Assembly (NCBI GenBank): GCA_026770705.1
Contig: JANJGN010000042.1
Span: 3,286,001 to 3,350,000 of the forward strand
Direction: 5' to 3'
Source: Isurus oxyrinchus
Taxonomy: Eukaryota
DNA: 64,000 nucleotides
Shown here: one piece after another, positions 5,160 through 61,844 of the stretch
How the letters are laid out: each line of letters starts with the position of its first letter
Numbering within the stretch: position 1 is the stretch's first letter
Made by a program: the position numbers and the translations under genes
Notes under the pieces: generated by a model
What the model was told of the DNA's origin: nothing
What the model saw: only the letters and a program-made list of their open reading frames with translations
Databases searched by the model: none

Positions 5160-5833
5160 TATTAGTAATACCTGTCATACCTATGTCAATGACATAACCC
5201 AGGTAAGACGCCCACAGTGACTGCTGGTACGGGACCCCAGCCATGGGGCCCATTTGCACACCTACAAATGGACTTTATACAAATGCCTAAATCTATGGGA
5301 TATAATTATGTTTTAATTCTAGTGTGTTTGTTCTTGCGATGGGTGGAGGCGTATCCCACCCAATGCAATGATGCTGTTGTTGTAAAATTGTTCATTTTAC
5401 TGCTGAAGTGATAAAGGAACTGTTGAAGGCCTTACAATGCAACCATCACCTTTCCTGCCCATACCACCCCCGGTCTACTGGAGCGATGGCAGGACAAAAT
5501 AGTATTCTGAAAAACAAACTAGCTAAATTATGTGAAGAAACCAGTTTGAAAGGGCCTGAAGCTCTACCCTTGGCGCTCATGACTATGCGCTCTCACAGTA
5601 ACTGTCTCAAGAGCTCGCATATACAGGTAGTAGAAGCTCAGAAAAAGCCCACCACTGAAGACTGCCATCAATACCAGCCCGGGGACCTAGTCCTGGTAAA
5701 GACCTTCAGTAGAAAGAACTGTTTGGAACCTCGATGGGAAGAACCTTTCCAAGTCCTGCTCACCACCCATACAGCCATGAAGCTTGAAGGATGCACTTGT
5801 GGATCCACACATCGCACGTCAAACAGACGCTGA
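5160..5833 (+). mobile_element. Endogenous retrovirus pol (integrase), internally deleted
   Basis: HNPGK..PWGPFAHLQMDFIQMP..VCLFLRWVEAYPT, CPYHPRSTG, and the C-terminal module PGDLVLVK..LEPRWEEPFQVLLTT..WIH. Stops and frameshifts present. Confidence 0.92.
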
Positions 5834-7285: not shown

Positions 7286-7629
7286 AACACTATCTATTTG
7301 TTGAACCATCGACATTGTCCTCTCTATTTGCTAAACCATTGACATTGTCGTGTCTAATCGTTAAATCATTAACACTGATCGCTATCCTTTGAAACCATTT
7401 GAAACTATTGTAATTGCCCAAGTTTCTGTCACGAACCTTTTGCTATAGTTATGTGTGTAAAGCGGTGTTAGTTAGAGTGCCGGCTAGCTCTGTTCTATGC
7501 TGTTGGGCTCTCTGTGATATCACGATTATAATAAAAGGCTTCCGAGACAAACCTCCTGGGTCTGAGTGTTCACTCGGTTTTTCCGCAACAATTATGTATG
7601 TAGATGTAAGAAGGAAGTTGATAAAATAA

Positions 7630-8370
7630 ATGAATAGAGACAATGTGGCAGACTGAGCTTACTGTGGGCAGGTGTGAGGGCATTCACCTTGAATCTTCAA
7701 ACTTTAACCACGGAGAAAAGAAGGATTTTAATGATACTTAATTGTCCTCTTTTACAATCATTGAAATCGTGTAGAGGGGGAGAAAATACAATCGGAATGG
7801 CGAAAGAAGGTAAGTCCTTATTGGAAGATAACTGGGACAGGTAGCGGCAAAAGTTAGGCATCAGTAGTCTGCTCAGACGGTATCTACATGAATGCATTCA
7901 GCTCTGTGCTCCTCACCACAGGCAACATAAATTTGCTTCCGAGTTAATACAGCACAGATTGACCAGCAAGATACTAGGGACAGAATATTAAATTGTGTGG
8001 AGAGGTTGCAGAATTGTCAGTTTATTCCATTGACTATAGAATATTGAAAGGAGGTCTGTTCGAGGTGATTTAGTGTTAAACTATTTGACAGAAAAATAAT
8101 TCTTCTTTCGGAGAATAAAGGATGGGGGTGTATAATATTACAATTAGAGGTAGGCTATATTTGAGGAGAAACTGAATTTCTTCCATGCAGAGGGTTATGA
8201 ATCCGAAGCTCTTCTCCAAAGTATTTGGATTTGATTCATTCAGAGCATTAAGTAGAATTACAGGATATACAGCACAGAAACAGGGCACTCAGCCCAGCAG
8301 GTCTGTGCGGCTGATTACGCTAAGTAAGAGAATGCCCCAATAACTCTTCATCTATCTTATATTGATACAA
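7630..8370. mobile_element. Highly decayed CR1-type LINE fragments
   Basis: Decayed similarity to CR1 RT 3' regions elsewhere in the window (e.g. 51930-52595). Boundaries approximate. Confidence 0.4.
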
Positions 8371-8596
8371 CCACTTCTAGTAATTCCCACAAGTTGATAC
8401 GTTTGCCCTATATATATTTTAACAAACACTTCTGTAACCCAAAAATATTTATCAGGGTGTAACCCACTTTACTCATTTCTCGAGATAAGAGACACAGCGT
8501 CTGCAAGATATCTAGCCATTATGAACTCAAATTTCTTGTCATGCGAGTAAAAACAAATTTATTGAAATGAAGACTAGAACTGTGGTTGGAGATTCT

Positions 8597-9202
8597 CACG
8601 TGTCTCAAAGGGGAAAAGGGGGAAACAGAAAGGGGGTGGGGAGGAACAACACCTCATCTTCCGACTAGGCACCTTACAGCCTTCCGGTCTGAATATTGAG
8701 TTCAACAACTTTAGGTCGTGAGCTCCCTCCCCCATCCCCACCCCCTTTCTGTTTCCCCCTTTTCCCCTTTTTTTCCCTATAAATTTTATAGATTTTTCTT
8801 TTCCCACTTATTTCCATTATTTTTAAATATTTTAAAATCTTTTATGCTCCCTCCACCCCCACTAGAGCTGTACCTTGAGTGCCCTACCATCCATTCTTAA
8901 TTAGCACATTCGTTTAGATAATATCACCAACTTTATCTTTAACACCTATGTGTTCCTTTGTACCATTGTCGCTGACATCTTTTGATGATCTGCTTCTATC
9001 ACTGCTTGTTTGTCTACACAACCACCTCTATCTCTCTCTCTCTCTCCGCCCCACACACACACCTTAAACCAGCTTATATTTCAACTCTTTCTTGGACTCG
9101 AAATCAAGTTCTGTCGAAGGGTCATGAGGACTCGAAACGTCAACTCTTCTTCTCCACCGATGCTGCCAGACCTGCTGAGTTTTTCCAGGTAATTCTGTTT
9201 TT
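8597..9202 (+). mobile_element. Penelope 3' fragment (ORF C-terminus + tail) with a short inverted 5' piece
   Basis: 8641-9202 is nearly identical to 11778-12345; 8608-8641 is an inverted copy of ~8736-8768. Confidence 0.92.
9107..9145 (+). ncRNA. Minimal hammerhead-like motif (core CUGUCGA)
   Basis: AGTT-CTGTCGA-A-GGGTC-ATGAG-GACTC-GAAA-CG-TC-AACT. Confidence 0.6.
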
Positions 9203-9450
9203 GTTATACAAACTTATCCATCAGAGACTCCGGCTGAACAGAAAATGATATTGATGCACTGCCGCACAACCATCCCATTCCCTGTGATATATTGGTACGT
9301 TAAGCCTCCAAACCAGAGCCCAAAGTTGCTGATAATGGCGTCGACAAACGGTGAACAAAAAGGTCGATTTAGAGCCGTCAGTTGAAGCTTGGATAAAAGC
9401 AGCCCCCTGACTATCTCAGCTTTGAGTCTCACAGACACTTCTGTGCTGTA

Positions 9451-9489
9451 CACACGTGTAGTAAGGGGCGACAGCGCCGTACAAAAACC
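9451..9489 (+). promoter_or_regulatory. V(D)J recombination signal sequence, 23-bp spacer
   Basis: Heptamer CACACGT (CAC intact), 23 nt, then a perfect nonamer ACAAAAACC at 9481-9489, immediately after the V end. Confidence 0.85.
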
Positions 9490-9984
9490 TCAGCTCCAGT
9501 TAGAACCGTATCTTTAGGAAGAAGAATTAATGAAGCAGATATTGACATTGGAGGATGAAGTAAAGTAGATTATAAAGAAATTGGCAGGAGGTTTTATGCC
9601 TATCTGTTTATGATTATACAATCTTTTCCACATGGAATGGTAAACCTACCCACTCAAATTAATTTTAGCTTATAACATCAACTAAGAGAAAAAGTTCGTT
9701 AAAATAACCTAGTCAACTTTACCTTCTAAAAGCTCTGTCCTGAAATTAAATATCTTCACTCCTAGGAGTTGTCGAACCAGTAAAATTAAATCAGAGTAGA
9801 ATATAACTACAGGCATATTATTCTGTGAAAGAAGCTCTTTTCAAGTTTACCACTACCAGCACTTAGAAGAGCTTGCTTATTCTAGGGTAAATATTGTTAT
9901 CAATATGTGGGTTTGTGAGGATTTCAGTGTGAGGCGACAGCTTTTGATTAATTACTTATGAATAAGTGAAATAGTATAAAATTT

Positions 9985-12347
9985 ACCCATTCTAACCTGT
10001 CTCTCTCTGAACTTACTGCACTCCATTCTCTCAGGTTCAACCCTGACATTGTCATCAAACCCGCTGACAAGGGTGGTGCTGTTGTTGTCTGGCGCACTGA
10101 CCTCTACCTCGCGGAGGCTGAGCGTCAACTCGCAGACACTTCCTCCTACCTCTCCCTGGACCATGACCCCACCACTGAACATCAAGCCATTGTTTCCAGG
10201 ACTGTCACTGACCTCATCTCCTCTGGGGATCTCCCTCCCACAGCTTCCAACCTGATAGTCGCCCAACCTCGGACGGCCCACTTCTATCTCCTACCCAAAA
10301 TCCACAAACAGAACTGCCCCGGTAGACCGATCGTCTCAGTTTGCTCCTGCCCCACAGAACTCATTTCTCGTTATCTTGACTCCCTTCTCTCTCCCCTTGT
10401 CCAGTCCCTTCCCACCTACATCCGTGATTCCTCTGACACCTTACGTCACATCAACAATTTCCAGTTCCCTGGCTCCAACCGCTTCCTCTTCACGATGGAC
10501 GTCCAATCCCTCTACACCTCCATCCCCCACCAGGATGGTCTGAGCGCCCTTAGCTTCTTCCTCGAACAGAGGCCCGAACAATCCCCATCCACCACTACTC
10601 TCCTCCGTCTGGCTGAACTTGTTCTCACGTTGAACAATTTCTCCTTCAACTCCTCTCACTTTCTCCAAATAAAAGGTGTGGCTATGGGTACCCACATGGG
10701 CCCCAGCTATGCCTGTCTCTTTATGGGGTATGTGGAACATTCCTTGTTGCAGTCCTACTCCGGCCCCCTTCCACAACTTTTTCTCTGGTACATTGATGAT
10801 TACTTCGGTGCCGCTTCATGCTCTCGTCGGGACTTGGAAAAATTTATTAATTTTGCTTCCAATCTCCCTCCCGCCATCATTTTCACGTGGTCCATCTCTG
10901 ACACTTCCCTTCCCTTCCTTGACCTCTCTGTCTCAATCTCTGGTGATAGACTGTCCACCAATATCCATTACAAACCCACCGACTCCCACAGCTACCTCGA
11001 CTACAGCTCCTCACACCCTGCTTCCTGTAAGGACTCCATCCCATTCTCCCAGTTCCTTCGCCTTCGTTGCATCTGTTCCGATGATGCTACCTTCAAAAAT
11101 GGTTCCTCTGACATGTCCTCCTTCTTCCTTAACCGAGGTTTTCCACCGACGGTCGTTGACAGGGCCCTCAACCGTGTCTGGACCATCTCCCGTGCATCTG
11201 CCCTCACGCCTTCTCCTCCCTCCCAGAAACATGATAGGGTCCCCCTTGTCCTCACTTATCACCCCACCAGCCTCCGCATTCAAAGGATCATCCTCCGCCA
11301 TTTCCGCCAACTCCAGCATGATGCCACCACCAAACACATCTTCCCTTCACCCCCCTTATCGGCATTCCATAGGGATCGCTCCCTCCGGGACACCCTGGTC
11401 CACTCCTCCATCACCCCCTACTCCTCAGCCCCCTCCTATGGCACCACCCCATGCCCACGCAAAAGATGTAACACCTGCCCCTTCACTTCCTCTCTCCTCA
11501 CCGTCCAAGGGCCCAAACACTCCTTTCAAGTGAAGCAGCATTTCACTTGCATTTCCCCCAACTTAGTCTACTGCATTCGTTGCTCCCAATGTGGTCTCCT
11601 CTACATTGGAGAGACCAAACGTAAACTGGGCGACCGCTTTGCAGAACACCTGCGGTCTGTCCACAAGAATGGCCCAAACCTCCTGTCGCTTGCCATTTTA
11701 ACACTCCACCCTGCTCTCTTGCCCACATGTCTGTCCTTGGCTTACTGCATTGTTCCAGTGAAGCCCAACGCAAACTGAAGGAACAACACCTCATCTTCCG
11801 ACTAGGCACCTTACAGCCTTCCGGTCTGAATATTGAATTCAACAACTTTAGGTCGTGAGCTCCCTCCCCCATCCCCATCCCCTTTCTGTTTCCCCCTTTT
11901 TCCTTTTTTTTCCCTATAAATTTTATAGATTTTTCTTTTCCCACCTATTTCCATTATTTTTAAATATTTTAAAATCTTTTATGCTCCCCCCACCCCCACT
12001 AGAGCTGTACCTTGAGTGCCCTACCAGCCATTCTTAAATAGCACATTCGTTTAGATAATATCACCAACTTTAACTTTAACACCTATGTGTTCTTTTGTAC
12101 CATTGTCGCTGACATCTTTTGATGATCTGCTTCTATCACTGCTTGTTTGTCTACACAACCACCTCTCTCTCTCTCTATCTCTCCGCCCCCCACACACACA
12201 CCTTAAACCAGCTTATATTTCAACTCTTTCTTGGACTCGAAATCAAGTTCTGTCGAAGGGTCATGAGGACTCGAAACGTCAACTCTTTTCTTCTCCGCCG
12301 ATGCTGCCAGACCTGCTGAGTTTTTCCAGGTAATTCTGTTTTTGTTT
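9985..12347 (+). mobile_element. Penelope-like retroelement, 5'-truncated, young
   Basis: Frame is open from at least IVIKPADKGG (10048) through RT (WYIDD) and GIY-YIG. One frameshift near 11680; natural stop at 11856-11858. Possible 8-bp TSD TAAAATTT (9977-9984, 12348-12355). Confidence 0.95.
12246..12284 (+). ncRNA. Minimal hammerhead-like motif (core CUGUCGA)
   Basis: AGTT-CTGTCGA-A-GGGTC-ATGAG-GACTC-GAAA-CG-TC-AACT. Confidence 0.6.
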
Positions 12348-12764
12348 TAAAATTTTAAATCCATGTTATTGAACAATCTTGATTTTCGAACAAATATTGA
12401 TTTGAAGAAGTTAAGTACTTACGATCCAGTACAATTTCTTAATAGTTTAGTGTGCCTTTCTCTTAACTTTTAAAAGGAATTCTCTCAGAACTCAACCCTT
12501 TGTGTCCTCAAGATGGCCGAGCTATGTCTCTGTGGTTGCTTGTCTGGGTAATGGCTTTTACAGGGGGCAAGTGTCTTCTCTCTGTAGCCTAGTGTACTAT
12601 CTTTACATTGGTAAACTTATCAGTTCCACCGTTGAATCAAGTATTGATGATCCATATTCCATATCATTCCGCCATACCACCAAACTGATGTTGTAGCTGG
12701 GAATTTCAGCACTAATTCCGTCCTTCTCTCTCCAACTCTCTCTCTTTCTCTCTCTGCCTTACTG

Positions 12765-24689: not shown

Positions 24690-27500
24690 TGCAAGTGCAC
24701 GTAGTGATGAATGGAGTTTGACTGCAGACAAAATCGCCATGTGGGGTTCTGCTATGGTGGAAGGAACAGGGAACTGACTCAATACCGGCTTGGATTAAAA
24801 ACTGAATTATTATTTCCATTATGTATCAGCAATGATGGGGAATGGAATAAAGAAGCAATGTTGGTCGAATGAAATGTTAAAGCGCTGGGGGGCGGGGAGA
24901 GGTGGTGGCGGGTTATGGGGGCGGGGGGGGGGGGATGGGGACGGTGGGGGATGATATCATTGCGTGCTCAAAGATGGATTCCATTTGGTTAACGTTAAGG
25001 AGCAAAAGAGGAACAGCTATGCTAGGATGTATACTCAGACCACCAAATTGTTGCAAGGAGATACAAGAGCATAAACAGAAAATGCTGGAAAAACTCAGCA
25101 GCACTGAAGAAGAGCCATACGGACTCGAAACGTTAACTCCTCTCTCTCCACAGATTTTGCTAGACCTGCAGAGTTTTTCCAGTATTTACTGCTTTTGTTT
25201 CAGATTTCCAGCATCCGCAGCATTTATGTGTATCTTAGATAAAGGAGGATATCTGTATGTTATTACTTTAAAAAAGAAGAAAAAAGTACACTGTTGATAA
25301 TGTGAACCTTCAATTATCCTAATTTAGACTGGGATATGATCTATACTAGGCCAAGAGAAGAGGTAATATTTTGAATTGAATGCAAGCACGACTTTACAGA
25401 ATCAGACTTTTAACGGCACAGAAGGAGGCCATTCGGCCCATTGTTTCCGTGCTGGCTCTCCAAGTGAGCATTATGACCTAGCATTGCCCTGCTATCCCCG
25501 TACTCCTTCACATTGTTTCTATTCAAATAATCATCTAATATTCTCTTGAATACGTCTATTGAACCTGCCTTCACCAGACTTCCTGGCGGCACATTTCACA
25601 TAATCAGTGTTTTTGTTCCCTCGCTCATTCAGTATGAGAACAGTGCTGGATCTGTGTCTGGGAATGAAGTGAGGCAACTGGAGCATATTTCAGTGGGTAA
25701 AGCTTTGTGAAAGAATGACCAAAATGTCAAGTTTAGAGAGGTTATGGAAAGGGGACAAACTCAATAAAGCACAAAACAAACATAAACATTAGTGAGTTCA
25801 GTGGGGATTTGACCCTGGCGCGTTGGAGTGAAAACAAAAACTGGCAGCAAAAGAGTAATTGTGGAATTGGAGGACTTCAAAGCGAAGATGATTCTGGGAA
25901 ATTGGAGGCACATTTTTACGAGGTGGAAAACAAGGGAATTCAAAGGCAGAGTTTCGTAAATAAGTAGATATATAGAGGTTAAAATGAAATGAGGAAAAGG
26001 CAGTTTTTGACAATGTTCTTTTCATATCACAATAGAAAACCAAGCTGAATCAAAAAGAATGTCGGGGTAATCTGAAAACATGAATTTCAGGGCAGTGTGG
26101 CGGGGGTGAGAGGGAGTTGGTGGGGATGGAAGGGGGGATTGGAGTTGCGGATAGTTTAGAGCAGTGAAAATATATCATTAAAATAGATTTGCTGCTGACA
26201 TAACAATGAAGCAAACCCCTTCTGTCAGCAGCAGGGCATCAAAGGATGTTTGGGCCCATTATGTCAAGATTCAGACCTTCTTGTAGAGGCAGAAAACAAA
26301 GCTCAAGCAATAAATGTCTACTTTGCATCTTTATTTGAGTAGCAAATGTTGCCAATGCAGACATAAAGATGGAAGCAACATTTCATTGGATAAAAATAGA
26401 GAAAGCGAAGGTATTTCAAGATTGTCCATCGCCAACCCTGGAAAGCCACCAACCTAAATCAGTGGCACCTTGAGTTAGCTAGGATGTAGGGGAGGACACT
26501 GTGGAGTTTCTGACCTGAAGCTGACAATCCTCCTTGTCTACGGGGATGGTGCCGCATGGCTTCAGGACTGCAAGTGTTACACCCCTGTTTATATATAGGG
26601 GAGAGGGGCGAACAAAGTAATTGCAGGCTAAAGATCCTAATGTTGGTGTAGAAAATGATTAAAGGCAATAGTCCGGGACAAAAATAATTTATATTTGAAA
26701 CAAAAGTCTGGGCTAATAAATGGAATTCTGTCTAACTGACTCGAATGCTGTGCTTTTGGTGAAGGCGTAATAAGCTTTGATAAGGACAATCTGGTTCATG
26801 TTGTCTGTATGAACTTGCAAACGTTGTTTACAAGTGAAACATTATCAAAATAAAAACTTATGATGTTAAAGAAACATGGAAACAGAACTTTCCAAACGGT
26901 TGGGTAACAGCGTACTGGTGAGCAGTTAATTTTTTTCAGACTAGAGAGCAGTATAAACGGCTGATCTGTAGTGGTCTGTATCAGGTCCACTGCTATTTTG
27001 ATGCCTATTAATAGGCTGGACTTAGGCATTCAGGGAATAACTTGAAAGTTAACAAATCATACTGACTCAAAAATGTGGTAAAGCATGAGGATTGTAAGAG
27101 TCTTCATGCGGATTTTGACTTGTCAGGTGAGCAAACATGTAACGTGTAACAATTAATATAGTTAAGCGTATATAGTGGCACATTTTGGTTGGTCGAATGA
27201 AGAAAGGCAATATTAATTAAATAGGATAAATTTAAGGAGTTCAAAAGACAGAGATGGTGTACAGACACAGATCCTTTAACGGGACTGGGCAATTGGAAAG
27301 ACATGAATAGCTTATAGGATCTTTTATTTTATTTAATAAGGGATTACAAAACAGAAGCAAGGAAGTTATGAAAAATGTTCAGAAACAATTGCGTAGGCCT
27401 TCGCTGTCGTATTGCATCCAATTCTGGACACCATACTTCAGGGCAAATGACAAGAACTTAGAGATGGTGCTGATGAAACTTATTAGAATTATTTAGGGTG
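24690..27500 (+). mobile_element. Old fragmented CR1 ORF2 with nested insertions
   Basis: Endonuclease-like ..GCILRPPN.., ..ASVTPLF.. and ..IQFWTPYF.. remnants. Confidence 0.55.
25070..25225 (+). mobile_element. Tiny fold-back Penelope-tail element containing a canonical-core hammerhead
   Basis: AAACAGAAAATGCTGGAAAAACTCAGCA is inverted relative to TGCAGAGTTTTTCCAGTATTTACTGCTTT. Between them lies CTGAAGA-A-GAGCC-ATAC-GGACTC-GAAA-CGTT-AACT (25104-25138). Confidence 0.7.
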
Positions 27501-29414
27501 AAGGAATTTCGTTCAGATGAAACGTTAGTATTCACTGCATTCAGAATAAAAACAATCACTAACCCGAAAAACCCAACATCCAGATCAGTAAATATCAAAA
27601 ACCCACAACTCCAACATCCAGACCATAAATATCATTAACCCCACATCCATAACATCCAGAATCCTCACTATCATTAACCCCACATCCCGAACATCCAGAG
27701 TCCACACTACTATTATTCCCACATACCTATCATTAACCTGAAAATCCCAACATCCAGAAACATAAATTTCATTGACCCCACTTTCTCAACATTCAGAATT
27801 GTCGCTATCACTAACTCCATTCCAAACATCTAGAATCCTCACAGTAATTAACCATGTTACCAACATTCCGAGTTCTCACTATGACTAATCCCATTCACAA
27901 CAACCAGACTCCTCACTATTACTAACACCGTCCTCAAAATCTGGAATCTGCACTAGAACTAAACTTATTCCCAACATTCAGAATCCTCATTATCACTAAA
28001 CACATTTACAACATCCAGCGTCTTCATTCTCATTAACATCGTTCCCAAAATCCATATTCCTCGTTATCATTAACCCCAATCACAACATCCAGATTCCTCA
28101 CTTACACTAACCCATTCCAATCATCCAGAATCGCTACTATCTTTGACCCCATTCCCAACACCCAGAATCCTCAGTATCACTAACACCATTCTCAAAATCC
28201 GGAATCTGCACTACACTAAACCTATTCCCAAATTTCAGGATCCTCACTACTGCTAACCCCATTCCCAACATCTAGATTCTTCACAATTTGCTGACCACAT
28301 TCACAACTTCCATATTCCTAATGATCACTAACACCTTTCCCAAGATCCAGATTCTTCATTATCATTAACCCCATTCCCAACATCCAGAATCGTCACTATC
28401 ACTGACCCCATTCCCAACATCCAGAACCCTCAGAATGAAAAATTCTATTCCCAACATGAGGAATCCTAAACATTATGAAGGAAATTTGCTACATCCCGAA
28501 TCATCACTATCATTAGCCCCATATTCCTAACATCCGGAATTCTCATTGTCACGAACCCCATTCCAAAAATCCGGAATCCTCACTATCATATATCCACATT
28601 CCAGGATTCTCACTGTCAAGAACTCCATTCCCAACATTCAGAATTCTCACTATCACTAACCCAACACTCTCAACATCCAGAATCCTCACAATCACAAACT
28701 CCAATTGAAACATCCAAGTTCCTCACTATCACTAACCCCATTCCCAACATCCAAATCTCCACTAGCACTGAATCCACATTTCCAACATCCAGAATCCTCA
28801 AAATACGAACGTGCTTCCCAAAATACAGCATTCTCACTATCACTAACACAGTATTCGCAAAATCGAGAAACCTCACCATCACTGATCCCACAACCTGAAA
28901 TCCAGAGACCTCATCAGCACTGAGCGCACAACCCAAAACCAGAAACGACATCATCACAGACCTCATAACCCAAACATCCAAAATCCTCACTACTACAATG
29001 ACAATCCCAGCATCTAGGCTCCTAACTTATCATTGAATATATTCCCAACATTCAGAATCTGCGTTATCAGTAACTCCATTCCCAACATCCAGAGTACTCA
29101 CTATCACTGACCCACAACCCAAACATCCAAAATCCTCACTATTAGTAACGACAATCCCAGCATCTAGGTTCCTCACTTATCATTGAATACATTCCCAACA
29201 TTCAGGATCCTCACGATCACTAGCTCCATTTCCAACATCCAGAATCCTCACTGTCACAGACCCACATTTGCAACATCTAGAAACTTCACTGCCACTAACT
29301 CCATTGCAAACATCCAACATCCTCTCTTCACTAACCCAATTCCCAGCATCCAGCATCCTCACCCTCACTAACCCCATTACCAGCATTCAGAATTCTCAAT
29401 ATCACTATATTTTT

Positions 29415-30345
29415 TGTTTTGTTATATTCATTCGTGTCATTTGGGGCGCCGCTGTCTAGGCCAGCATTCATTAACCATCCCGCATCGCGCTTGAGAAGGT
29501 GGTTGATGAAATGCCTCATTGAACCGCTGCAGTCCATGTTGTGTAGGTACACACACAGAGCTGTTAGGGAGGGAGTCCAAGGATTTTGACCCAGCAACAG
29601 TGAAGGAACGGTGATATAATTCCAAGTCAGAATAGTGAACGTCTTGAGCAGGAACTTCCAGATGATGGTGTTCCCATGTGCCTGCTGCCCTTGTCCCTCT
29701 CGATGATAGCGGCCATGGGTTTCGATGCTGCTGTCGAATGAGCATTGGTAAATTCCTGCAGTGCATCTTGTAGATGATACACTGCGCCTGTGCATCGGTG
29801 GTGGAATGCAGTGAATGCTTGTGGATGTTGTACTAATCAAGTGGCCTGGATTTGGATCAGTCCGATCTTCTTAATTGTTGTTGGAGTTTCACTCAGCTGG
29901 GCAAGTGAAAAGTATCCCATCACACACCTGACGTGTTTGTTGATGGTGGACAGGCTTTTGTGGAGTCAGGAGGTGAGTTATTCGCCACAGGATTCCTAGC
30001 TCCAGAGCTGCTCTCATCGCCATTGTAGTTCTATGTCAATTCCAGTTCAGTTTCTGGTCAATGATAACTCCCAGGTTGTCGATAGTGGGGGATTGGGTGA
30101 TGGTAAAGCAGAATGTCAAAGGGCATCTTTAGATTATCTCTTGTTAGAGACAATGATTGCCTGGAACCTGTGCGGTGTGAAAGTTGCTTGCTACTTGTCA
30201 GCCCAGTCCAGATCTAGTTGCATTTGTTCAGGGCTGCTTCAGTACCTGAGGAGTCGCGATTTGGTTCTGAATATTGCACAATCATAAGCGAGCATTCTCA
30301 CTTCTCACCTTATGATGGAAGGAACTTCATTGATGAAAGAGCTGT
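29415..30345 (-). mobile_element. CR1-clade LINE 3' portion inside the minisatellite (copy 1)
   Basis: Same family as 17790-18968. Confidence 0.85.
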
Positions 30346-30633
30346 GCCTCGGGAATTCTCCACTAACCCTGCTTTCCCAACTTCCAGATTCCTCCCTTAT
30401 GCTAACCACACATCCCCAAAATTCAGAATCCGCCCTATCAGTAACCCCACATTCCCAACATTCAGAATGCTCACTATCACTAAAGCCACATTCCCAGTAT
30501 CCAGAAATCTCACTATCAATAAACCACACTCCCAACATTCTGAAAACTCTCTATCACTAGCCCCATTCCCAAAAGTCAGAATCCTCAATATCACTAACCT
30601 TATTGCCAATATATAGAATCCTCACTCTCATTA

Positions 30634-30907
30634 CAATAATAAAAACAAAAGAACTGCAGATGCTGGAAATCCAAAACAAAAGCAGAATTACCTGGAAAAA
30701 CTCAGCAGGTCTGGCAGCATCGGCGGAGAAGAAAAGAGTTGACGTTTCGAGTCCTCATTACCCTTCGACAGAACTTGAGTTGGAGTCCAAGAAAGAGTTG
30801 AAATATAAGCTGGTTTAAGGTGTGTGTGTGGGGGGCAGAGAGATAGAGAGAGAGAGAGGGGTGGGGGAGGGGTTGCGGGTGTGGTTGTGAGGACAAACAA
30901 GCAGTGC
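30634..30907 (-). mobile_element. Penelope 3' tail insertion with hammerhead-like motif at 30737-30775
   Basis: 16-bp TSD ATCCTCACTCTCATTA (30618-30633, 30908-30923); core CTGTCGA. Confidence 0.9.
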
Positions 30908-31149
30908 ATCCTCACTCTCATTAACCTCATTTCCAATGTACAGAATCCTCACTCTCACGAATCCCATTGCCAATATCCGCAAGCCTCACTATCACTAACA
31001 CCACATTTCCAGTATCCAGAATCCTCACTATCAATAAACCACACTCCCAACATTCTGAAACCTCACTATCACTAGCCCCATTCCCAACTTCCAGAATACT
31101 CCCCATTACTAACATCATTCCCAACATCCAGAATTCTCACTGTCACTAT

Positions 31150-32110
31150 TTTTATTTATTATTATTCATTCATGGCATTTGGTCATTGGTGACTAGGCCT
31201 GCATTCATTAACCAACCCTAATTGCCCTTGAGAAGGTGGTGGTGATCTGCCTCATTGAACCGCTGCAGTCCATGTGATTTTGGTACACCCGAAGAACTGT
31301 TAGCAAGGGACTCCAAGGATTTTGACCCAGAGACATTTAAGGAACAGCGATATATTTTTCCAAGTCAGAATGGTGAGTGGCTTGAGTTGGGATGTCCAGG
31401 TGCTGGTATCCCCATATATCTGCTGCGCTTGCCTTTCTGTATGGTAGCGGCCATGGGCTTAGAAGCTGCTGTCGAAGGAGCCTTGTTGAGTTCCTGCAGT
31501 GCATCTTGTAGATGGTACACAGTGCTGTCAATGTGAGTCGGTGGTGGATGGACTGAATGTTTCTGGATGCTGTGCCAGTCAAGTTGCCTGTTTTGTCTTG
31601 GATCGGGTCCAGCTTCTCAAGTATTGTTGGAGCTTCACTCAACCAGGCAAGTGGCGAGTATCCCATCACACTCCTAACTTGTGTTTGTAGATAGTGGACA
31701 GGCTTTTGTGGAGTAAGGAGGTGAGTTACTGGTCGCAGGATTCCTAGCCCCTGGCCTGCTCTTGTTGCCATTGTAGTTCTCTGTCAATTCCAGCTCAGTT
31801 TCTGATCAATGTTAACCCCCAGGATGCTGGAGCGAGGAATTCAGCGATTATAATGCCGTTGAATATCAAGCAGCATGGTTAGATTCATTCTTGTCAGAGA
31901 AAGTCATTGCTTGGCATTTGTGTGGTGCGACGTTTGCTTTCCACTTGTCAGCCCAGTCCAGATCTAGTTGCAATTGTTCATGTGCTGCTTCAGTACCCGA
32001 GGAGTCGCGATTTGGCTCTGAACATTGCAAAATCATAAGTGAACATTCTCACTTCGGATCTTATGATAGAAAGAAGGTCATTGATGAAAGTGCTTAAGAC
32101 GGTTGGGCCT
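31150..32110 (-). mobile_element. CR1-clade LINE 3' portion inside the minisatellite (copy 2)
   Basis: Shares diagnostic deletions and junction with 29415-30345. Confidence 0.85.
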
Positions 32111-34844
32111 CTGAAATTACACACTAACCCCACTTTCCCAACTTCCAGAATCCTCCCTATCGCTAATCCAACAATCCCAACATCCAGATTCCAGTCTCTT
32201 GCTAACCCGTCTTCCAACTTCCAGAGTCCTCACTATCACTAACTCCACGTTCCCAAAATCCAGAATCTCACTAGCACTAACATCACATTCACAATATGTG
32301 GAATCCTCACTATCAGCAAACCACACTTCCAACATCCAGAATTCTCAAAATACCTAATCCCACATTCCCAACATCCAGGACCCTCACTATCACTGACAAA
32401 GTCCCAAGATACAGAATTCTCACTGTTACTAAACCACCCTCCTCACATGCAGGACCCTCACTATCACTACCCCCACTTCCCAACATCCAGAATGCTCATA
32501 ATCAATAACCCCACGCTGCCAAATTCTAGAATCCCCTCCATCACTGTCCCTGCATTCCCAATGCCCAGAATGCCTCACGATCGCTAACAAAGACTCCCAA
32601 CATCCACACTCCTCACTATCACTAAACCATACTCCCCACATGCAGAATCCTCACTGTCACAAACCCGACGCTGCCAACATCCAGAACCCTCTCTATCACT
32701 AGCCGCACACTCCCAACATCAAAGCCCTCAGCATCACTAGCCCTACTTTCCCAATATCCAGCATCCTCACTATTACTAACCCAGCAATCCCATCACCCAG
32801 AATCATCTCTAACACTAACTGCATTCCCTATATCCAGAATCTTCACTGTCATTAAACCAACATTCAAAATCCTCACTATCACTAACCGCACATTCCCAGC
32901 ATCCAGAATCCTCACTATTACTAACCCCACATTCCTAAAATTCAAGTCCTCACTATCACTAACCCTATTCCCAAATTCAGCGCCCTCATTATCACTAACC
33001 CCATTCCCAACATCAAGAACATTCACGATCACTAACCCCACACTCCAATCATCAATAATCGTCACTATCAGTAACTCCACACTCACAACATCCAGAATCC
33101 TCACTATCACTAATCCCGAACTCCCAGCATCCAAAACGCCCACCATCGTATCCCCGCACTTCCATCACCCAGAGCCCTGATCGCTAACCTCAAACATCGT
33201 CACCCAGATAACTCACCCCTCGGCCGCCCCACCTTCTCATTACTCAGAGAGCTTATCATGAATAACCCCAGCCTCCAACATCAACCTCCTTCACCATGAA
33301 GCCTCCCAAATTTGTAACACTAGGAATCCTTTTTGTTACCAGTCACTCAGTTTTCCAATATCATTCATACGATTTATTATCACATATCGCCCCCAAAAGT
33401 GAATCTCCTCAAATTATCGTCGTACCTGGAGCCTCATGAGTGAAGTATCTCTGTCGTGCCACACAGGCCGATTAGTATTCTTTTCTCTATGAGCTAGAGC
33501 CAGAATTTGAACTAAGGTCCATTTTCCCTTCCTAGGAACACTCTATTTCACTAACTTCTACAATTATATTAACTCTAAACATTGTGGTATTGTTACTGCT
33601 TTCAAGGCGCTGATCACTCAGAATCCTTTCAGCCTCCAACAATAAGTCTGATACTCAGGGTCTCCGCTGAACTGCACGCTGCCATAATCCAGAGCTCTCT
33701 CAAATTCTTCATGCTCCTCTTTAGTCGCCTAGATTCTTACCCATCATCCAAACCCTCGCTGCCATTGTCCAGCCTCCACTCAGTCACTAATATCTATACT
33801 GCCATCTCGTACAAACCTGTTCTGCCACTGCTTGGAGCAGACAGATGGTCCTGGGAAACAAGGAGCATTCTATTCTTTAGCAGATCGTTCGGTAGGATAT
33901 TTAATTTCTGCACAAACTACTAAGGCGACCAGGTTCTCCTTAATTACTATTTGTCACTCAAGACATTTGTTGCAATGCAGCCGGATAATCGGCAGTATGA
34001 ACTCTGTGAAGTTAGGCTTTGAATCGGACTCTCTCCCTTCTGATTGCCAGGTAGAACCGTCCTAGCAAAACCTTGTGGACTACCACAAAACAGGCTTAGA
34101 AGGGTTATTGTACTTATCGACCCTGAGAAATGTTAAAGGGAGATAACCCAATGTACATTAAAGAATATTGGTAATTAGAGTTAAATGTGAAGTGATTGGG
34201 TTACTAGGTCTGTGACAGTGCGAGATCAGCTGGAGATGTTCTCTGTAATCTCCTTCGATCACCTCCTTATCATTTCCCAGGGATGTTTTTTAGTCTAAGA
34301 TCCCCGGTTATCTATTTCTACACTTACAATTAAATGCCCGCTTATATTTCTCAAATTCGAAATAATCTTCAATTAAATAAATGTGAACAATATTTTCTGG
34401 GTTTGAGATGGAGCAGAGGCAGCGAATTAATTCAGGCTAAAAAGATAACTGCGCTGTCTTCTTTCTAATTTTATTCAGCCAACATCCTGTTTTTCTGCTG
34501 CTGTGCAAAACCACAGGCAGCGTGTCCTGCAGTAAATCAATACACAGAGCTTTATGTACCGGTTGCAGCCTGCACCTGGCAGCACGCAGCACCGGCCTGA
34601 AAAGCTATGTGCTGAAGTGTACGTCTATCATTTTATGTCAGAATTAACAATATGAAGATGATTTGTAGCATTGAAAATGAACGGAACTGTTTTGGATCTC
34701 AGCAAATGACAAGGACCCCGCCGTTCTCATTCTTTAGGTCCCTCTGTCTTTTGTTCCTCTTTGCTTCTACTTGCATCGACAGTCTAACACAATCTCCTGT
34801 CTATCTCTCTGCCTCACTATCTGCCGCCACCTCTTTCTTCTTCT

Positions 34845-40379: not shown

Positions 40380-40425
40380 ATGGACACAGTTTATATGATG
40401 CTGCTCTTGCTAACGTGTTTCTCCA
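40380..40425 (+). pseudogene. Ig light-chain-type gene, leader exon
   Basis: MDTVYMMLLLLTCFS followed by a phase-1 donor GTGAGT; the 123-nt intron ends TTCTTACAG. Confidence 0.88.
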
Positions 40426-40548
40426 GTGAGTATAACGTGGAGCTGATTTTGCTGTAAAGATTTAAAAGTGTATTGACCCAAAACGTTCCGTGTGCCTTTA
40501 TCCTTTACCTTAGGCCTGAACTCATGACTTTTACTCTGATTCTTACAG

Positions 40549-40909
40549 GTGTCTGTCCACTTCCCGAACTGCTCCAAGCCGAAACTGCCTCTGCCGTCCC
40601 AGGAGGGTCCGTCACCTTAAGCTGCTCGGTAAAGAACAGAGATATCGGGGATAGATGGCTCCGTTGGTTCCGACAGAGGCCGGGGAAGACACCGGTTTGG
40701 ATCCTGACCCATAAAAGCACCGATGATGGAGGCGCCCTGCTCCGAGGCTCAGGGTTCACCGACTGCTTCGCCCATTCTAGAGACGACGCAAAGAAAAGTT
40801 TCTCCCTCACTGTCAATCAAGTGGAGCTGAAGGACTCGGCTGTCTACTACTGCTCGCTTTTTGATTCTGGACAGGTATTTTGGCAAAGGTACAGAGTTAC
40901 ACGTAGTGG
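40549..40909 (+). pseudogene. Germline-joined VJ exon of an Ig light-chain-type gene (J out of frame)
   Basis: PGGSVTLSC..WFRQRPG..FSLTV..DSAVYYC, then with no RSS or intervening DNA TTT GGC AAA GGT ACA GAG TTA CAC GTA GTG G|GTAAGT (FGKGTELHVV), shifted by +1 nt relative to V. Confidence 0.92.
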
Positions 40910-41215
40910 GTAAGTAAATATTGAGGCCGTGCTTGTGTTAAGGGAAGATTTTAGATTGCAAAATATTACACAATGTTGCAACAGTCATTGTGAAATAACT
41001 TCACAAGCCCGACACGACGGCAATATTTCCTTTAGTGCTTGAGATACTCGGCAGTTGGTATTTTATTAGTTGAAAAAAGGTGAACTCGGTGATCGTTCGG
41101 CTGAGACGAGGCTAAGCGTTAACGTTGCTCCAATAAAAATTATTGTCAGGAATGCAGGAGCATTCTCAACTTCGCGGGATACGAAACAAAGAGTCCGAAA
41201 TTCTTTGGATTCCAT

Positions 41216-41397
41216 GGGGTAAAAATCGCCTTAGGTGGTGGCGGAAACGGACTTTATCAGATAGGCCGCACCTTTTACCCAGCGGCCAATAGTCAGTTGC
41301 CTTGTAGCCAGTGGAACTAAATGTCAGGGGCTGCACTGAACCAGCGGCCTCACCGATACGGCCTGATTTGCGCCACTGCCAAGGCGGATTCCTATCC
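41216..41397. mobile_element. MITE-like element with ~45-bp imperfect terminal inverted repeats, in the J-C intron
   Basis: Left end GGGTAAAAATCGCCTTAGGTGGTGGCGGAAAC versus right-end reverse complement GGATAGGAATCCGCCTTGGCAGTGGCGCAAAT. Confidence 0.55.
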
Positions 41398-43585
41398 TTA
41401 CCGTGCATTGTGGTGAATAGTAGGCGATGTTTGATGGTGCTAATCTCTATTCATTATTATTGGACGATGTTTGTTATTTCTGGGAGCTAGTTGGTATTGC
41501 CGTGTGAAACTGGTTAAAACTGGACCATATTTTAACATTGAGTGACACTTGCTATTACAGGATATTTATTTCCGCAACGCCTGAGCAATCTATCTTATTA
41601 CCACCACTCATCAATTCTACATCTATTTATGCTCACATAGCCATATGCATTATTGCTCTGGGGCGTAGTGCCAGCGGCGTGAGGGGGCAGTTATTGTTTT
41701 GTGGCTGAACGGTGCATAACCAACAATCACAATTCCTTCAATGAATGTATTTTCCGTCACTTCCATATTAATGCATTGGCTCGAATAACGAAAAGCGTAT
41801 ACCGTAGGATAAACCGAAATTGATCAGAACAATAGAATCTTTAAATCTGAACAGGTACAGCTACCAAATATTAAATCACCCGATCTTTAATTTATTGGCA
41901 AACCGTATAATTCAATGTCTAAATTTCCAGACATGTTAAGCATGAAGCATAATTTTTTAAAAAAAACATTAGTTGTCAGTAAGTTATAGGATTTGAAATT
42001 TCACTTTTTACTTCTGTTCTGAACTTGTATTTCGGCTCCATTTTTCTGGTATAAGCGCATCGAGAACATTGACCTTCTTGGCAAATATTACATGAAACTG
42101 CAGACCTCTGCCATGATCATTGGAAAAGCTCATTCGTGTCAATCAGTATTTATTAAAAAAAACCTAGACGTTATTGTACCTTAAGTTGCAGGTTAAGACA
42201 GTGGGACAGGGTAAGAATGAAATAATTTAATTGTGATATTAATGGAATGGAACACTGAGTATGATGTTACTGCTTACACAGAGGGCCGTTACATTCCCTC
42301 TTGGTATAATTTCTGTTGTGTCAGCCATGGTTTAGTTGTAGCACTCTGGCGTTTGAGTCAGAAAGTTGTGGGTTTAAATTTCCTACAGTACAACATTGAG
42401 AAAAAATGTATTTAATTTGGAGCTGCCATGTATTATTTTATTTTAAACCATAAACCATTAGTTTAGAGCGGAGCTCCGAGGCAAAGAAACGTTCAAATAA
42501 GAATGTGCAATGTTCCACGTATGAACATCATCATCAATAGGATTAATTTCAGAAAATGACAATGATTCCGAAAAAAAGTTTCAAATTGCCACCGATTGTT
42601 TTTTGTTCCGACGGGGAAGAATTGCTCTCATTTCAGTGGAGGGTGGTGGGATATAGATGGGCTATAGATGCCTTTTTCTTCGATCCATGGCAGTTCAAAG
42701 CCCAGTGAATGCCCAACTTGTCTTTGAATGCAAAGCAGGGAACATATTCTGGGGTGCATTTCCTATTTTAATTCAAAAAGTGACCCGTGCAAATACTTCC
42801 CCCACAGTTCAAAGCATGAATAATATTGCTGAAATTTTATTTTTCTTTCAATTGTTCCTGATGCTAGTGATAAGTGCTAGAAAATAGTCATTGTCGGCCA
42901 TCATTCAAACAGCTCCCGATACTCAGCTCCACTAACTGCATGGACAAGGATATCAGGCGCTGTGTAGAAAGGCCGGTAGAATCAATGCCGTCTGTATTGT
43001 TCCGCCGCCTGGGGCGAATTTATAGCCAAATTCATTGCAAGACATTTTGATACTGAAGTGTAGGTCAATCAGTTGGATCTTGCGCTGGAGAGCTCACTTC
43101 TGGTTAGTTTTTTTTAAAGTTAGCGCATGATAATTTTAATGTGGTTAGTGCAAAAGTTTCGATCTTTCCAACAATAAAGTGCTGTATTTGTCGGTTTGAA
43201 TGTCAGAGCTGCAGATTAGAAATTATCTAATTTTCCGCGATAGAGAAATACAATGTAATCAATTTCAGGGAAAATAAATACAGGCAATGCTTCTTTTAAT
43301 GATTCACATTTTGGCCATTGGCTGTAGGTACGTTTACAAAAAAATAAAGGCGCTCCTCCTGAATAAAAGGTAGCAGCTGAGGATATTACACAAATCAATT
43401 TTTACAAAAATGCACAAGGCTTGATGTGCACTGATCTACAACACACCGAGCGGCTGCGCTTTCAGCTGGAGTGGAGCAGAATCAAAAGCACATTGGGTGG
43501 AATACGTTTTGTAGAACAAATAAATGTGACAGCGGCGATGACTCTGCTTGTTTGTACTGCTGGCAGATATTTGGAATATCTGTTT

Positions 43586-43671
43586 GGGAGTTCCCCAATA
43601 TATAACAGAAAATGGAAAATTCCCCTTTTATTTAGCAAATTGTTCACACCAAGCAATTCGAGGAATTTTCC
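43586..43671. promoter_or_regulatory. Cluster of NF-kB-like sites in the J-C intron (candidate intronic enhancer)
   Basis: GGGAGTTCCC(C) 43586, GGAAAATTCCCC 43614, GGAATTTTCC 43662; CAGCTG E-boxes at 43374 and 43463. Confidence 0.4.
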
Positions 43672-43989
43672 ATCAAACTATTGTGAAAACGAAAAGATAT
43701 TGGCGAAAATGTTACGCGGTGATAGTAAATAATGGTGTCGTAGCATTTTGAAATAATTTAATTTTGAACATAGTGGGCTACAGAGCGAAGGTGGCCTATT
43801 ATTATTCGCCCTCAATGAACCAAAAATTTACCTACGCAGTGTGGGACTGAGTCACGTCGACAAGGCGGGTAGGAATGGGGTTGGTCCATTTCCTGTGAGC
43901 CACTTGGTTATTACAACAATCCGGAAGCTTGTTTGCCTCCAGCGTAATTGAATTCAATTCCTGAAATTGTAATGGTGTGATCATAAGCC

Positions 43990-44410
43990 CATAACTAAGC
44001 CCACCAGAGAAGCAGGACGGGAGTTCTGTGGACAGACTGTAAATCCGGGGGTTGTTTCCTTAGAGCAGCGACGTTTATGGGGTAACTTAATGCAGGTATT
44101 CAAACCATTAAGGACTTCAATAGCGACAGGAAAGTCGGTATTCACGGAATACAGATATAAAGCGAATGGAAGAAGAACCAGAGCGGCCATGCGGGATTTA
44201 TTTTTCTTTTTATGCAACGGTTTGTTGTGATCTAGAGGGCTCGGATGGGAGGACGGTGAAAACAGATTCAGTAATAACTTTCAAACGGGAATGGGATGTA
44301 TATTTGAGTGGACACTATTACGGGGCTAAGGGAAAAGGGTACATGACTGAGACAAGATGAATAATTATTTGAAAAGCCGGCAGAGGCACTGATGGACGCC
44401 TCATTCTGTG
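43990..44410 (+). mobile_element. Decayed CR1 3' fragment
   Basis: ..GLFP*SSDVYG.. region and tail resemble the other CR1 3' ends in the window. Confidence 0.5.
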
Positions 44411-44509
44411 CGGTATTTTCCGAAGGTCTATGATAACCATACCGTTAAGCTACAATAATAATGTCTCTTACAGTGACAGTCCATGTCATCTATGTACCAT
44501 CTGTTGCAG

Positions 44510-44830
44510 ATCGTCAACTACAGGTGCCATCACTGGAATTGTTTCCGCCTTCGCGCCAGGAAGTAACTTCAGCTGAAACAGTGACGCTGAGCTGTCTGAT
44601 TCGGGGCTTCTATCCAGCTTTCGTGGAAAGCGCGGGGCATTGAGACGCAGAGCGGAGTGTCCACAAATCTACCTAATCTTGAGGCTGACAACAGCTACAG
44701 CATCAGCAGCTACCTGAGGGTCCCTGTCAGCTCTTGGAACTCGAAGGATCACTACTCGTGTCTGTTCCGATACACGTCTCAGGACACTCTCGTTCAGAAA
44801 TCCATCAGCTTGGACACCTGCAATCGCTAA
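44510..44830 (+). pseudogene. Ig light-chain-type constant (C1-set) exon, frameshifted
   Basis: Phase-1 acceptor TTGCAG, then DRQLQVPSLELFPPSRQEVTSAETVTLSCLIRGFYPAFVE, a deletion removing the core Trp, then GIETQSGVST..DNSYSISSYLRVPVSSWNSKDHYSC..KSISLDTCNR*. Near-terminal Cys retained. Confidence 0.92.
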
Positions 44831-60934: not shown

Positions 60935-61844
60935 TCATAATTTAAATAACTTAAAAATTAAACTGAGTAGATATTTCACCCTATTTATTAACTCCTCTCT
61001 GAATTTACTCTGGCTCCCGGCAGAAATAAAAGGATTGATGCAGGAACTGAAAAGTTTCAAGATAAATCCACTTTCCTCCAGAATGAAATTTGATTCATTG
61101 AAATTGGAACCAGAGAAATAAGTAACTCTCGCAATTCTGGTGTAGAGGAAGATTATAAAAGTTAACAAATATAATGTGATGAAGTTGCCTGAAATGGTGA
61201 AGAGTAAAACAATGGACGTTCTCCTCTTCTCCATTTCTGGGTCACACTGATTCTCTCCATTGCTCTGGGCTCGGAGTCTCCTGCGGGCCCGACTGACCGC
61301 AAGAATGTGCTTGACAGTCAGAGCATTGAGAAATAAAATCAGAATGGACGGGAGACAAGGGTTAAAAATGTGAAGAATCCAGTCATATGTCACCCAAGAA
61401 GGTGATGTATAAAATATGCCTTTTATGCTGCAGAACCAGGGTACATTGTGAATTGTGTGCGAAGTTTCATAAATAAAATACAAGAAGGAAGTTATAAAAC
61501 AGCTGATTGCACAGACTGTTCTGATAACCAGCGCTGCCGCCTTCTCGGTGCAATATTTTATTTTCAACTTTTGACAACAAATGGCCACAAATCTATCAAA
61601 GGTGAAAGCGACCGTTAACAGTGCTGAACAACCTAAGGCTGCATAGTTGAAGATAGAACGGAGACTGCAGAGCGGTCTGATGGCCAGAAACTAAATGAGA
61701 AATAAATACCAGTGATCCGGTTTAATATCACAGAATTGATAATGACCATGAGGTCCGACACGGCCATAGAAACTAAATAGTAATTGATGCACCTGGAGAG
61801 ACCGCATCTTCCTCGAGACAGGATCATAGTCACTGCCAAGTTAG
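60935..61844 (-). pseudogene. GPR139/142-like class A GPCR main exon with a single frameshift
   Basis: Intact phase-1 acceptor, ANLAVTMILSRGRCGLSRC..MAVSDL.., a 1-nt deletion near 61686, then open through FTFDRFVAICC..CINPFI..KFR to the stop at 60935. Confidence 0.88.

Follow-up and report, generated by a model that had tools for sequence, protein, structure and literature searches.

Mammalian TCR V orphons are non-functional V segments that retain an RSS, lie away from J and C, and are found on another chromosome or outside the locus. In known shark chains of mixed type, an IgH V is carried on TCR delta, and the V-delta that supports the NAR-TCR immediately follows a NAR-TCR V(D)J cassette. 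The closest described setting is the antigen receptor complex of four elasmobranchs, where IgH clusters are interspersed with TCR alpha/delta-type V exons (Flajnik et al., 2025; PMC12227049). As far as the accessible text of that paper goes, its Table S1 tabulates the interspersed TCR alpha/delta Vs, including pseudogenes, together with a light-chain gene listed as sigma-prime or sigma, and the catshark has a single TCRa/dV between IgW and IgM, with TRA/TRD C on an unplaced scaffold. Penelope insertions, in the portion of PMC3846280 that is available, possess inverted and direct arms, short target duplications and an ORF coding for RT and GIY-YIG.

The stretch analyzed here, hereafter the window, covers 64 kb of the unplaced contig C42 of Isurus oxyrinchus (C42:3,286,001-3,350,000). 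It contains what is very probably a displaced TCR alpha/delta-type V pseudogene located in a field of IgH clusters, split by a Penelope element, multiplied by segmental duplication and likely functionless. Like the mammalian orphons, this segment is a non-functional V with an RSS away from J and C, but its copies probably reside on the same chromosome as TRA/TRD. It shares with the elasmobranch complexes the presence of TCR alpha/delta Vs, pseudogenes among them, between IgH miniclusters, as well as a light-chain gene in the same complex, and it differs from them, as far as the available text of PMC12227049 shows, in the roughly 20-fold amplification of one dead V lineage in duplications and Penelope-bounded tandem arrays. 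Since TCR V exons among IgH clusters are thus already published, the setting itself is known, and the solitude of the segment, as seen in the initial annotation, is neither supported nor surprising. A literature search, with subscription papers on shark TRA/D mostly outside its scope, returned no description of the displaced V family or of its amplification.

The V remnant, identified by trees, frame reading and the Pfam V-set profile, occupies positions 9203-9450 (+) of the window, the first of which (9203-9216) constitute the 3′ target-site duplicate of the Penelope insertion. Its frame reads VIQT..MHC..IYWYVKPPNQSPKLLI..GRF..KSSPLTISALSLTDT, so that the framework motif string reported after VIQT is present, as is the CACACGT-23-ACAAAAACC that follows at 9451-9489; no ORF of at least 100 aa runs over the remnant, in agreement with its reported absence from the ORF track. 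The V-set match is modest (E 0.0012 over 57 aa, below the family cut-off). The first Cys and the Trp are in frame, and the second Cys is present but out of frame. Two lesions on which the initial annotation was silent are an in-frame TGA at 9383-9385 and, relative to the paralogs, a 10-nt deletion between 9439 and 9440, because of which the terminal CAV is out of frame. The complete framework (Cys, Trp and second Cys in YxC) is found in paralogs L025, L052 and L053 and in the hypothetical protein GCB75380.1 of Scyliorhinus torazame. Of the leader, open frame and intact RSS expected of a functional V, the window copy has a deleted leader region, a TGA, a frameshift and a damaged heptamer.

Assignment to the TCR alpha/delta type is borne out by trees that group the window V with a family of the TRA/TRD locus, apart from the IgH, IgL and TRG Vs. 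These trees were built without TRBV sequences (none was recovered, and the likely TRBC contig, C2826, held no V) from 48 of 76 rows kept after removal of near-duplicates, or from 43 rows once five more had been dropped, namely a duplicate, three long or misframed rows and one VJ copy. Among the Vs of the same genome, the window V, L018, L021 and L025 form one clade (100/99), whose sister family has two of its members, L156 and L184, on contig C242 (98/91 with 48 rows, 98/98 with 43 rows). With outside sequences, the window V joins GCB75380.1 and a Logan protein (100/97), with the sister family next (97/90). GCB75380.1 is 67% identical to the window V over 86 aa and is likewise an unrearranged V followed by a heptamer-like read-through but, unlike it, keeps its frame open and has both Cys as well as the Trp; the Logan protein, 52% identical to the window V, is also open. 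The presence of such open-frame relatives inside the clade indicates that the window V family is old and distinct.

Other searches were less discriminating. Four multi-domain antibody constructs head the PDB matches of the sister family (L156/L184); its best single-domain matches, which come behind them, are human TRAV12 chains. PDB searches with a displaced V or with GCB75380.1 returned antibody light chains or multi-domain constructs that do not classify the V, the Atlas matches mix alpha, beta, gamma and IgH names, and a protein homologue search with the L025 V gave no match. As an observation on the sister family itself, L142-L162 (C26:23.9-40.2 Mb, C242:276 kb) seem to have an unsplit leader, 15 of the 16 distinct members presenting an in-frame ATG and a hydrophobic stretch directly before the V with no conserved acceptor, in contrast to the split leaders of the Vs L097, L183 and L186.

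The signal that follows the V is a damaged 23-class RSS (9451-9489, +) composed of a heptamer minus one base (9453-9458), a 22-nt spacer and a consensus nonamer (9481-9489); re-read two bases earlier, it becomes CACACGT-23-nonamer. A single site in the window fits CAC-N27-ACAAAAACC, and 2 of 100 shuffles contained a match (mean 0.02). Where L021, L024-L026, L052 and L053 read CA-CACAGTG, the window reads CA-CAC-GTG, a comparison absent from the initial annotation, and the inherited heptamer has therefore lost one base. CACAGTG is intact in the seven loci read (six distinct places), whereas each of the 20 near-identical copies combines CAC-GTG with a 22-nt spacer. A paralog on C26 with CACAGTG-23-ACAAAAACC places the 3′ RSS in the 23 class, the window copy being shortened by one base; in a six-copy group, the five examined have CACAGTG-22.

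Whether such a site is of any use to RAG was assessed with a scoring matrix built from 25 intact 23-RSSs of the same genome (leave-one-out), which took the place of a RIC score. The window RSS reached 11.6 bits, below every one of the 25 (12.9-28.4), with a heptamer score of -3.8 against a minimum of -0.4, and is the best-scoring of the 2081 CAC sites in the window. According to the available part of PMC10536018, the CAC of the heptamer is required, an absolute need does not extend to positions 4-7, position 6 is preferably T, and CACNYRY ranks as the most disfavored class; the window heptamer, with C-G-T at positions 5-7 and hence no T6, belongs to that class. The earlier suggestion that the RSS may still be a RAG substrate thus stands as a weak possibility, CAC and nonamer being kept, yet a disfavored one. 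It could be taken further: with the V dead as a gene, its RSS would remain a live substrate and some 20 copies would give rise to breaks or trans-rearrangements across the IgH field. The CAC, 23-nt spacer and consensus nonamer of the 9451 register and the partial dispensability of positions 4-7 speak for such activity, as does the trans-rearrangement of IgH V with TCR delta described for this region in the available text of PMC12227049. The lowest score of the set, the disfavored heptamer, the loss of the proximal upstream region from the window copy and the absence of a J-like partner within 60 kb, in a scan for V and J, make it improbable. No RNA data set was listed as containing the V, and no joint at the RSS appeared in three presumed-RNA runs; among the four runs compared with L020, X1 yielded two low-depth contigs, one of them crossing the RSS unrearranged, and X8 and X11 left the V of L020 uncovered. 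At most, the site would serve RAG as a weak cryptic RSS, any joint there would yield no protein, and the signal is likely too damaged for use.

Upstream, the native 5′ flank of the V gene extends over 7286-8603 (+), including the GDS codons at 8588-8596, and is 97-99% identical to the flank of nine other copies. It had been proposed that removal of the Penelope insert restores the N-terminus GDSVIQT. In the uninterrupted paralogs L018-L020, GDS is located upstream of VIQ at a distance of some 470 nt, and AG*TD precedes VIQ; because of this spacing and of a 945-nt loss in the window copy, the restored N-terminus is a chance join. Undeleted interrupted copies such as L133 show the native 470 nt followed by two pseudo-LTRs, one inverted and one direct, that are bracketed by 14-bp target duplications. 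By comparison with L133, the window copy has lost 945 nt comprising the leader region, the start of the V and most of the inverted arm, a loss shown by none of the other copies followed. It left a scar at 8604-8642 (unoriented) made of a 3-nt filler and the last 36 nt of the inverted arm, 8607-8642 being the inverted repeat of 8735-8770. The direct pseudo-LTR of this first insertion (8640-9202, +) is 96% identical to the terminal repeat at 11779-12364. In L018-L020, a leader-like stretch ending in a stop precedes the V, and L019 and L020 have an in-frame leader-like ORF before the V and also an acceptor-like CAG; no candidate for an upstream leader exon was found in L021 or L025.

A second, 5′-truncated Penelope element (9985-12347, +) codes for RT (RVT_1, E 2e-7) and GIY-YIG (E 0.001, below cut-off) and has an 8-bp target duplication. 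Having target duplications of their own, 14 and 8 bp, the two elements inserted independently of each other. In L022, L023 and L027-L030, which account for eight partial matches, the V is split by yet another Penelope insertion at the equivalent of window 9349-9362.

Genome-wide, a DNA search with a 318-nt query returned 35 matches, all scored: 20 full-length at 98% or more, eight partial at 99% or more, six at 78-80% and one at 83%. The segment, described as alone, is so only in that no other TCR-type V lies in the window and 60 kb either side; it is one of these 35. The 20 near-identical copies are spread over six contigs, with C38 holding the most, and every one carries the TGA, the frameshift and the shortened CAC-GTG heptamer, together with either a second stop or the loss of the leader. 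Penelope interrupts 17 of them, which are on average 99.6% alike over 395 nt; the three uninterrupted copies (L018-L020) are 97.9-98.2% identical to those 17. Ten of the interrupted copies form two five-copy tandem arrays with periods of 3140 and 1981. The former equals the distance between the direct pseudo-LTRs (8640 to 11779), which suggests unequal crossing over. The native 5′ flank is shared at 97-99% by all nine copies followed upstream, and by a tenth, partial one; C100 matches the window region at 97.7% over 100 kb and C326 at 95.8% over 45 kb, and in the three places examined a Penelope end marks the limit of the shared block. The copies were thus spread by segmental duplication, of at least 100 kb in the pair followed, rather than by transduction, with the caveat that some copies on unplaced contigs may be alleles rather than paralogs.

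The arrangement could also be read as Penelope having carried the V and its RSS as cargo between pseudo-LTRs and spread them by retrotransposition, for the unit of inverted pseudo-LTR, pseudo-LTR, V-RSS, RT ORF and pseudo-LTR resembles the captured host gene in the available part of PMC3846280 and forms tandem arrays. Inverted and direct arms, duplications of 8–14 bp and an RT and GIY-YIG ORF are indeed common to both; unlike there, the host segment has not been transduced. The native 5′ flank is common to 10/10 copies or arrays followed, both Penelope sites are empty on C326, each insertion has its separate target duplication, and the copies are restricted to eight contigs, of which C26 is the only large chromosome. 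Transduction of the V was accordingly rejected and the cargo reading, already largely refuted, is hardly credible.

Three other features of the window may be recorded here. An ORF at 5372-5830 (+), inside the duplicated block, contains a retroviral-type integrase C-terminal domain (MLVIN_C, E 1e-12); a class A GPCR frame at 60935-61687 (-; 7tm_1, E 2e-15) has relatives in the vicinity of the V paralogs on C26 and C42; and a long array of diverged short repeats, 65-76% alike, occupies 27,500-33,200.

Because the TGA, the frameshift and the heptamer loss are also present in the uninterrupted copies, they are older than the Penelope insertion. Run X3, from organism B, covers L020 without a break over the insertion site and with no difference listed at the lesions, so the dead uninterrupted form is present in that organism too. 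Record 22 of the same run includes a low-depth contig, about 90% identical to L020:1707-2010, whose 11 gap letters are as many as the 10-nt and 1-nt deletions add up to; a paralog free of both may be present in organism B. The dN/dS of the displaced copies is 0.91-2.95 (six pairs) versus 0.48-0.73 for intact array Vs (six pairs), with 1-7 synonymous differences per pair.

A germline-joined light-chain-type gene, overlooked in the initial annotation, lies 31 kb from the V at 40380-44830 (+), with its leader at 40380-40425, VJ exon at 40549-40909 and C exon at 44510-44830. In the window copy, J is frameshifted by +1 and C lacks 11 nt. Among named proteins, the closest relative of the gene is a “lambda-1 light chain-like” one from Chiloscyllium (69%), with which it groups (100/95), and it groups weakly with 12-RSS light-chain clusters on C36; it is possibly the “IgL sigma-prime” of PMC12227049 Table S1. 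The VJ is found 29-32 kb downstream of the V in nine blocks and the C exon in 12 copies in the genome. An intact copy is located at C326:546,657-551,346, and run X1 contains a spliced light-chain contig with neither frameshift. Selection for this neighboring gene as the driver of amplification is unsupported, C being frameshifted in five of the six copies read and intact only on C326. Other single-exon VJ genes without RSS occur at C2:3.53-3.61 Mb, C783:148 kb and C1:233.9 Mb (L088-L090, L100).

The wider surroundings place the V outside the main V array in a narrow sense, as had been proposed. No other TCR-type V or J-like segment exists in the window and 60 kb either side (184 kb), and the TRDJ-C-TRAJ-C region is on C242, which carries V segments, an IgH-like V, seven J, a C exon, 83 J and a second C exon, i.e., a TRD-then-TRA layout (one spurious J row was dropped from 91). 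The TRDC and TRAC labels are based on this architecture because profile and PDB searches gave no clear identity: a Pfam PF09291 search found no TRAC, and a PDB search with the 3′ C exon of C242 gave weak IgH matches only. With no V or J within 60 kb upstream, the segment does not have the placement of a NAR-TCR supporting V-delta. IgH C exons are numerous on C42 and C38; on C42, those listed closest to the window V are about 0.6 Mb to either side of it. From their sequence features, L101 and L104 are presumably IgM-type C exons; that of L105 is IgNAR-type, with 4q9c as best single-domain match, and could also be IgW.

Contig C26 carries a copy of the family at 5.96 Mb; its TCR V array begins at 23 Mb, and across C26:23-40 Mb the TCR Vs are interleaved with IgH C exons. 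This interleaving, as in Table S1 of PMC12227049, and the 8.9 kb that C38 and the start of C26 share at 99.4%, would suit an ordinary in-locus pseudogene at the far end of a very long TCR alpha/delta V array that is interleaved with IgH. That is very improbable, given that the sole family copy on C26 lies 17 Mb from the first array match, that the 184 kb around the window V hold no other TCR V and that the displaced paralogs examined have one TCR V neighbor. Among the best 150 of 431 candidates scored, the 33 best protein matches of the family all fall outside the C26:23-40 Mb array, inside which identity is at most 42%; as only the best 150 of 431 and the best 150 of 1204 candidates were scored in the protein searches, an array member could have been missed.

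The displaced pseudogene has less decayed relatives. L025, L052 and L053 (C131:351,825, C38:4,767,326 and C42:1,738,782) have an open leader-like and V frame, a 4-residue gap after CDR2 and a CACAGTG-22-ACAAAAACG signal, with a second TCR V about 8.5 kb upstream in the two examined. The family could be imagined as marooned among IgH clusters with these three copies still rearranging, long-range to TCR J/D or to IgH D segments, to give TCR-V-on-IgH hybrids, the reverse of the known shark chains; this is doubtful and seems unlikely.

The displaced, duplicated pseudogene can be accounted for as follows. An old V family would have come to lie in the IgH-cluster field, where one lineage may have decayed through stops, the 10-nt deletion and the heptamer loss. 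Penelope would then have inserted into the V and 0.8 kb downstream, after which the block with the light-chain gene would have been duplicated. The two five-copy tandem arrays are likely products of unequal crossing over between the direct pseudo-LTRs, and the window copy would have lost its 945 nt last.

The locus is of modest import, as an example of the way in which block duplication disperses TCR V pieces among the antibody clusters of shark antigen-receptor regions, with Penelope repeats likely serving as breakpoints and array seeds. One genome preserves the dated steps, from empty site to insertion, array and deletion. The locus would weigh more if the open-frame paralogs were used, for TCR V segments would then be recombining from inside the IgH field.
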